Source: Escherichia coli
Lineage (GTDB): Bacteria; Pseudomonadota; Gammaproteobacteria; Enterobacterales; Enterobacteriaceae
Assembly (NCBI RefSeq): GCF_044647545.1
Contig: NZ_CP172818.1
DNA length: 64,000 nucleotides
Reading direction: 5' to 3' (one strand)
In this document: positions 2,902 to 4,488 of the stretch, in pieces
How positions within the stretch are numbered: position 1 is the stretch's first letter
Layout of the letters: each line of letters starts with the position of its first letter
Translations under genes and position numbers: made by a program
The notes under the pieces: generated by a model
The model's input: the letters and a program-made list of their open reading frames with translations, nothing else
Told to the model about the DNA's origin: nothing
Databases searched by the model: none

Positions 2902-4245
2902 ATGTTACCTTCTCAATCCCCTGCAATTTTTACCGTTAGTCGCCTGAATCAAACGGTTCGTCTGCTGCTTGAGCATGAGATGGGACAGGTGTGGATCAGC
3001 GGCGAAATCTCTAATTTCACACAACCAGCTTCCGGTCACTGGTATTTTACGCTCAAAGACGACACCGCCCAGGTGCGCTGTGCGATGTTCCGCAACAGCA
3101 ACCGTCGGGTGACCTTTCGCCCGCAGCACGGACAACAAGTTTTAGTGCGCGCCAATATTACACTCTATGAACCGCGCGGCGATTATCAGATTATCGTCGA
3201 GAGTATGCAGCCTGCCGGTGAAGGGTTGCTGCAACAAAAATACGAACAGCTTAAAGCGAAATTGCAGGCTGAAGGTTTGTTCGATCAGCAGTTAAAGAAA
3301 CCGCTTCCCTCCCCCGCGCACTGCGTCGGTGTGATCACCTCAAAAACCGGTGCTGCGCTACATGATATTTTGCATGTGTTAAAACGTCGCGATCCGTCTT
3401 TGCCGGTGATCATCTACCCCACCGCCGTTCAGGGTGATGACGCGCCAGGGCAAATTGTTCGCGCCATTGAACTGGCGAATCAGCGTAACGAATGTGATGT
3501 GCTGATCGTCGGGCGCGGCGGCGGTTCGCTGGAAGATTTGTGGAGTTTTAACGACGAACGTGTAGCGCGGGCGATCTTTGCCAGTCGCATTCCGGTGGTC
3601 AGCGCCGTCGGGCATGAGACGGATGTGACGATTGCCGACTTTGTTGCTGATCTGCGTGCGCCAACGCCGTCTGCCGCCGCTGAAGTAGTGAGCCGCAATC
3701 AGCAAGAATTACTGCGCCAGGTGCAATCGGCCCGTCAACGGCTGGAGATGGCGATGGATTATTATCTCGCCAACCGCACGCGTCGTTTTACGCAGATCCA
3801 TCATCGCTTGCAGCAGCAGCATCCACAGCTCCGGCTGGCACGCCAACAAACCATGCTTGAACGCCTGCAAAAACGGATGAGCTTTGCGCTGGAAAATCAG
3901 CTTAAGCGTGCCGGGCAACAGCAGCAGCGATTAACACAGCGGCTGAATCAGCAAAATCCACAGCCGAAGATTCATCGCGCGCAAACGCGCATTCAGCAAC
4001 TGGAATATCGTTTAGCAGAAACCCTGCGCGCACAGCTTAGCGCCACGCGTGAACGTTTCGGTAATGCAGTAACGCATCTCGAAGCGGTGAGTCCACTGTC
4101 CACACTCGCTCGCGGTTATAGCGTTACCAGCGCCGCTGATGGCGCGGTGTTAAAACAGGTTAAGCAGGTGAAAGTGGGTGAGACACTGACCACTCGCCTG
4201 GAAGACGGCTGGATAGAAAGTGAAAGAAAAACATCCAGCCAGTAA
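2902..4245 (+). CDS. xseA: Exodeoxyribonuclease VII large subunit, with an aberrant C-terminus (447 aa as encoded; the expected last ~14 residues are in another frame)
   Basis: Translation [39 protein letters not shown]... is XseA. The frame ends ...[15 protein letters not shown] at 4243-4245, whereas [14 protein letters not shown] is encoded in a different frame ending at 4269-4271. Confidence 0.85.
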
Positions 4246-4268
4246 AAAAATCGCGTAAAAAGGTGCAT

Positions 4269-4488
4269 TAAGCCAGCACGAATTCAACGCGTTTTTTCGA
4301 TATTAAACCATGCCCATGCTGACAGAAGTAATCCACTGCACCACAAGCTTTTAACACCTGCAACGCCTGATGACACTCAGGACAAAGTGCCTTGATTTCG
4401 GTAAATTTTCTCCCGCAAGATCGACAACGAGCATCTCGCCGTTATCCTGATCAAGCATCATGCTAGATTGTGGACAATGCAGTTCCAT
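4269..4488 (-). pseudogene. yfgJ: yfgJ-like zinc-ribbon small protein, frame-disrupted
   Basis: Minus-strand ATG at 4486-4488 gives MELHCPQSSMMLDQDNGEMLVV... and stops after 45 codons. A second frame encodes ...ARCRSCGRKFTEIKALCPECHQALQVLKACGAVDYFCQHGHGLISKKRVEFVLA* ending at 4269-4271. The start-to-stop span is 220 nt, not a multiple of 3. Too short in either frame to appear in the ORF track. Confidence 0.45.

Follow-up and report, generated by a model that had tools for sequence, protein, structure and literature searches.

The xseA-yfgJ junction

The window, a 64-kb stretch of one Escherichia coli contig that was analysed here at full length, contains the convergent genes xseA and yfgJ, with der beyond yfgJ. 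An earlier, sequence-only reading of this DNA had described xseA and yfgJ as broken by several small lesions. Our open reading frames and alignment to K-12 MG1655 bear this out: XseA is cut to 447 aa (456 aa in K-12, 455 aa in ST648-type strains), and the sole surviving yfgJ reading frame is a 45-aa stub (4351-4488). The TTAA overlap of the two stop codons also lies where that reading had placed it, at 4268-4271. The features of the junction are as follows.

2902-4245, plus strand: truncated xseA open reading frame of 447 aa; 2902-4201 is 100% ST648-type, with a K-12-type tail from 4202 that is out of frame after 4225
4201/4202, no strand: left breakpoint, after which 12,015 bp follow in MS6198 and strain ST648
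4202-4271, plus strand: K-12-type islandless xseA 3' tail, equal to K-12 except at 4225-4226 (GT>A plus A>G, net -1)
4268-4488, minus strand: chimeric yfgJ remnant in which K-12 and ST648 alleles alternate, with frame-breaking indels at ~4396-4413, 4433-4441 and 4459-4465
4489-4557, no strand: chimeric yfgJ-der spacer, a K-12/ST648 mixture with indels

Identity to ST648 ends at exactly position 4201 (…CTCGCCTGG), and the next 70 bp encode the K-12-type XseA tail, embedded in an otherwise SNP-free ST648 background. The two tail types are strongly diverged (K-12-type EDGWIESEV…KKVH versus ST648-type GDGVVISEV…RKKA). In a three-way alignment of the tail region, 67 columns match K-12 only, 11 match ST648 only and two match neither. 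The xseA frameshift is a net loss of one base at 4225-4226, where K-12 reads GTGAA-GT-AAAAAA-C and the window GTGAA-AG-AAAAA-C. From 4232 to 4303, including the TTAA overlap, the window is identical to K-12.

Beyond this point the mixture becomes much finer. Compared with K-12, yfgJ carries indels of +3, +2 and +1/-1 together with many substitutions. Across yfgJ and the spacer, the three-way alignment gives 69 K-12-only columns, 49 ST648-only columns and 16 that match neither strain, almost all of the last at indels, and the apparent origin switches 39 times over the 118 informative columns. The indel-free 3' half of yfgJ (125 bp) holds 26 informative SNPs and 11 origin switches; random interleaving would give ~12.9, and one recombination tract only one or two. 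The indels that break the frame resemble neither allele; they look as if complex differences between the two had been applied only in part. Over 4180-4600 the totals are 136 K-12-only, 60 ST648-only and 18 neither-strain columns, and from 4558 (the der stop codon onward) the window is again 100% ST648-type.

An island is missing from the junction

The damaged patch had been put at ~270 bp. It measures 356 bp (4202-4557) once the K-12-type xseA tail is counted in full, together with the yfgJ-der spacer, and it stands in place of 12,015 bp of MS6198 (MS6198 locus 4202-16216). In MS6198 and strain ST648 this segment comprises the xseA tail, an 8-kb adhesion-domain gene (ratA-like), sinI, sinH and an intact 71-aa zinc-ribbon yfgJ. 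None of the sinH-sinI-ratA island genes is present between xseA and yfgJ in the window, where the 356 bp sit between ST648-identical flanks, and every closest relative of the window carries the missing island at this junction. The 'xseA..yfgJ' genomic region of ExPEC has been described as carrying the ila cluster (sinH, sinI, ratA), which is regarded as derived from the Salmonella CS54 island, and the island is known to be present in some strains and absent from others at the xseA-yfgJ site (PMC12928451).

Two observations concern the natural variation of this site. The last ~100 bp of shared xseA (window 4095-4201 compared with K-12) show ~30 differences per 100 bp, and between island-bearing and islandless E. 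coli the C-terminal ~20 residues of XseA differ and the yfgJ alleles are only ~77-80% identical. This divergence of the xseA/yfgJ flanks suggests two old haplotypes tied to the presence or absence of the island. Separately, a 97-aa K-12-type YfgJ in ENA has its stop codon read through into the antisense of the xseA tail; this is a further assembly damaged at the TTAA overlap of the two stop codons.

The window is ST648-type outside five sites

In a search of 5,426 complete E. coli genomes, positions 1-4201 and 4600-12000 of the window were each 100.0% identical to a group of ST648-type genomes that includes strain ST648, MS6198, ECONIH1, IMT16316 and others. Over the full length, comparison with MS6198 shows 0 substitutions across 64 kb, with the differences confined to five clusters; the ST648-identical stretches are 1-4201 and 4558-64000, apart from four further small lesion clusters within the latter. 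Alignment to K-12 MG1655, in contrast, shows ~3% divergence throughout, with 321 dispersed differing positions in the first 9 kb. These two results rule K-12 out as a baseline, and the sequence-only reading, which had judged gene integrity by K-12 protein lengths, was thus using the wrong yardstick: the window is ST648-type and 100% identical to that type outside the five lesion sites.

MS6198 served as a second comparator, used to separate errors in the record of strain ST648 (CP008697; NZ_CP008697.1) from those of the window itself. The homopolymer differences of CP008697 opposite window positions 22807, 41869, 59728 and 63735 vanish against MS6198, and by the same comparison a SNP opposite 15055 belongs to CP008697 and not to the window. 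The CP008697 annotation lists sseB and yphA as 'frameshifted'. These frameshifts and the homopolymer differences look like errors of that assembly rather than of the window.

Small variants follow the same pattern without exception. MS6198 and K-12 differ by ~1,839 substitutions and 10 indels of 1-6 bp in this region, and the window has the MS6198 state at every one.

Four further lesions coincide with structural differences

The sequence-only reading had confined the damage to the xseA/yfgJ patch. This does not hold, as four more scrambled or ragged intergenic spots occur in the window; they were invisible from protein lengths because no annotated core gene is broken.

22063-22223, no strand: second lesion, with 98 scrambled bases (22064-22161) in place of ~500 bp of ST648-type DNA that contain the first copy of timP plus an sseB fragment; one base differs at 22164 and another at 22223
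25003-25024, no strand: third lesion, ten scattered single bases gone from a terminator-like hairpin between pepB and iscX, where K-12 has an extra ~159 bp
30834-30836, no strand: fourth lesion, 13 bases gone from a REP-like element between iscR and trmJ, adjoining a ~89-bp K-12-specific repeat unit
52392/52393, no strand: fifth lesion, seven ST648-specific junction bases (TTTTTCA) gone between yphH and glyA, where K-12 has an extra ~150 bp

The 98-bp stretch at 22064-22161 is peculiar in composition, with only five G among its 98 bases; the other lesions have no such bias. It has no match in the 5,426 complete E. coli genomes. Foreign DNA is ruled out as its source, since the timP-locus sequence at this site aligns with it after removal of many single bases, mostly G: the best alignment is obtained after deleting the G's of that local sequence (z = 10.3, compared with 6.0 for the unmodified sequence). 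The stretch may have arisen where two diverged paralogues piled up on a single copy in the template. At the third lesion, the hairpin of ST648 reads AAAACGGGCTACCCCCAGGCAGCCCGTT, and its stem no longer pairs in the window after the ten-base loss.

An independent alignment of ST648/MS6198 with K-12 has exactly five breaks, in the same five places as the five lesion clusters. All five clusters lie within 40 bp of these five breakpoints in 64 kb (P ~1e-11 under random placement). The extra DNA of ST648 (the island and the ~500-bp timP/sseB' duplication) is absent from the window. The extra DNA of K-12 (~159, 89 and 150 bp) is also absent, together with 10, 13 and 7 ST648 junction bases that have been lost at these sites. 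The failures thus depend on size: the window is correct at the small variants and wrong at each of the five large or highly diverged differences.

The broken sequences are found in a single record

Over its full length and at more than ~84% identity, the patch occurs in none of the 5,426 complete E. coli genomes, and the best identity for the 481 bp around it is only ~83% in any of them. The window's other odd junctions were likewise not found in these genomes; the best match to 21900-31000 among complete E. coli is 99.2% in three pieces, which span ~430 bp more than the window does. All 5,426 were accordingly dismissed as carriers of the patch or of the odd junctions. Strain KR2009, marginally the best islandless match, was considered as a better template than K-12 and set aside, as its single difference from K-12 lies outside the patch.

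At the protein level, a search of ~5.8 billion proteins found no YfgJ more than 87% identical to the longest yfgJ frame of the window, and no protein mixing K-12-type and ST648-type residues in the way that this frame does. The best matches belong to the ordinary alleles of K-12 type or ST648 type. On these grounds an intermediate YfgJ allele of natural origin was rejected, the top match being 87% identical and K-12-type.

The exact 447-aa XseA and the 45-aa stub are each found on one contig, in NCBI only. It is the same contig of 4,499,902 bp in both cases, which lies outside the 5,426 RefSeq complete E. coli genomes searched and is smaller than the chromosomes of both K-12 (4.64 Mb) and ST648-type strains (4.7-5.3 Mb). 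Its absence from that set would agree with a record kept out of RefSeq on quality grounds. As a control, at least 1,000 contigs carry the intact ST648-type XseA (455 aa), and at least 1,000 the intact YfgJ (71 aa) of this type. The same sequence in independent isolates, which the sequence-only reading had named as the observation that would speak against it, was looked for and not found: the broken proteins are singletons. A natural pseudogene would be expected to recur in relatives or to sit on a recognisable natural allele, and neither is seen here.

Discussion

The coincidence of the lesions with structural breakpoints, the mosaic patch, the failures that depend on variant size and the singleton broken products can be brought under one explanation. 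Very probably, the patch is a computational artefact rather than a mutation: a template-guided consensus that came of fitting sequence data from an ST648-type isolate to a K-12-like template without the island. The scope of this statement is the 64 kb of genome compared, and the evidence consists of sequence. The type of pipeline and the identity of the template are what we infer from the pattern of damage. The sequence-only reading had proposed a local assembly or consensus error. Its consensus-error half is supported, while the error is neither local nor random, occurring systematically at every structural difference from a K-12-like template.

The proposed process would begin with ST648-type data placed on the islandless template, either by read mapping and consensus calling or by polishing of a reference, and would have four consequences. 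Firstly, all SNPs and small indels of the sample would be recovered, and in the window every short variant does match the sample type. Secondly, large extra segments of the sample (the 12-kb sinH-sinI-adhesin island and the timP duplication) could not be inserted; the window indeed has neither the island segment (12,015 bp) nor the timP/sseB' duplication (~500 bp). Thirdly, segments present only in the template would be removed with ragged edges, as the imprecise junctions at three spacers display. Fourthly, divergence of the sample allele would defeat alignment in the xseA tail, in yfgJ (~77-80% identity) and in the spacer, so that template bases would persist there alongside partly applied sample variants. 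Such a chimera is found at 4180-4600, and this mixing of template and sample bases would put both xseA and yfgJ out of frame. In the real isolate, XseA (455 aa) and YfgJ (71 aa) are most likely intact and the island is most likely present.

Two features fit this process less neatly. If homogeneous reads had been mapped cleanly, the SNPs within 125 bp should have been called either all together or not at all; the near-random interleaving in yfgJ therefore needs an extra assumption, such as noisy long reads, weight given to the template in a polishing consensus, or variant filtering. Furthermore, a template-guided consensus does not specifically predict the G deficit at 22064-22161.

A mixed or contaminated sample offers an unlikely second route to much of the same pattern. 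If an ST648-type strain and a K-12 laboratory strain were assembled de novo together, bubbles could have collapsed onto K-12-structured paths that were afterwards polished with the majority ST648 reads. This would also put K-12-type structure and bases into an ST648 SNP background and yield a mosaic consensus at diverged spots. However, the shorter structure was taken at all five sites, whichever strain had the extra DNA, and no K-12 alleles occur elsewhere in the 64 kb. Moreover, the junctions that lack the K-12-only DNA are ragged rather than clean ST648, which fits deletions from a template better than a choice among graph paths. A mixed sample therefore accounts for the ragged edges less well than does a template-guided consensus.

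Biological explanations fare worse. Recombination has some appeal at a locus already known for island presence or absence (PMC12928451): homologous exchange with a K-12-like donor that had no island could have removed it from an ST648-type strain, with patchy mismatch repair of the heteroduplex afterwards. The K-12-type junction structure and xseA tail between ST648-type flanks are what such an event would leave. An imported tract should be contiguous, with few switches and parental-type indels, and the patch does not have this form. Instead, origin switches 11 times among 26 SNPs over 125 bp at only ~80% identity, and indel columns match neither parent, although patchy repair would settle each indel in favour of one parent. 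Damage of the same kind also marks four unrelated intergenic sites, every one of them at a K-12/ST648 structural difference, and the sequence is unique to one assembly. We consider such a scar highly improbable, and the small recombination or repair scar that the sequence-only reading had offered is unsupported: neither the switching in yfgJ, nor the indel bases belonging to neither strain, nor the four other damaged sites agree with it. There is similarly very little probability that the patch is physically real in a broader sense, i.e. that the island was lost through exchange across ~80% identical flanks, that error-prone, patchy heteroduplex repair left a fine mosaic whose new indels inactivated xseA and yfgJ, and that the other four sites belong to the same genome-wide exchange, with a K-12-like donor.

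Less probable again is a natural third islandless allele, whose xseA tail and yfgJ would have decayed to pseudogenes within the lineage. yfgJ is naturally very diverse (~77-84% identity between types), and states in common with both alleles are what an intermediate lineage would show too. Nonetheless, no such allele, intact or broken, occurs among the 5,426 complete E. coli, and the best protein match in ~5.8 billion is 87%. Up to 4201 and again from 4558, not one SNP separates the flanks from island-bearing ST648 genomes, so ~130 changes in 356 bp would have had no time to accumulate, and the four other lesions would be left unaccounted for. Finally, random low-quality sequence, e.g. uncorrected long-read errors, might be suggested by the several differences that are small indels, and is effectively refuted by the 0 errors in ~63 kb outside the five sites, homopolymers included, and by the exact coincidence of the lesions with structural differences.

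The broken xseA and yfgJ are almost certainly not a real feature and hold no biological novelty. Their practical value lies in quality control, since a public 4.50-Mb E. coli record described as 'complete' seems to force an ST648-type genome into a K-12-like framework. In that case its accessory islands are missing, in this window a known adhesin/invasin island with links to urinary-tract virulence, xseA and yfgJ are fabricated pseudogenes, and intergenic elements are scrambled. Analyses of pangenomes, pseudogenes, virulence genes or recombination that used such a record uncritically would be distorted. The pattern also provides a reusable diagnostic: lesions found only at structural differences from a candidate template, with all small variants correct.

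Comparison with known systems

The ila cluster, or CS54-like locus, occupies the same junction, and MS6198, strain ST648 and others carry sinH, sinI and the 8-kb adhesion-domain gene there. The window differs in holding no island gene at all; only the junction is present, in its K-12-like islandless form. With the islandless convergent xseA/yfgJ junction of K-12 the window shares its architecture, including the 4-bp TTAA stop-codon overlap. In contrast to K-12, it has a -1 lesion in the xseA tail, a chimeric and frame-broken yfgJ, and ST648-type surroundings.

A closer parallel lies in reference-guided consensus 'pseudo-assemblies', in which small variants are recovered, insertions of the sample are missing, template-specific segments are cut imprecisely and template bases are kept wherever the sample is too diverged. 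The window shows the same failure modes, within a genome that is smaller than both of its apparent parents (4.50 Mb). It departs from a simple map-and-call consensus in being messier, both in the SNP-level interleaving at yfgJ and in the G-poor 98 bp at the timP locus.
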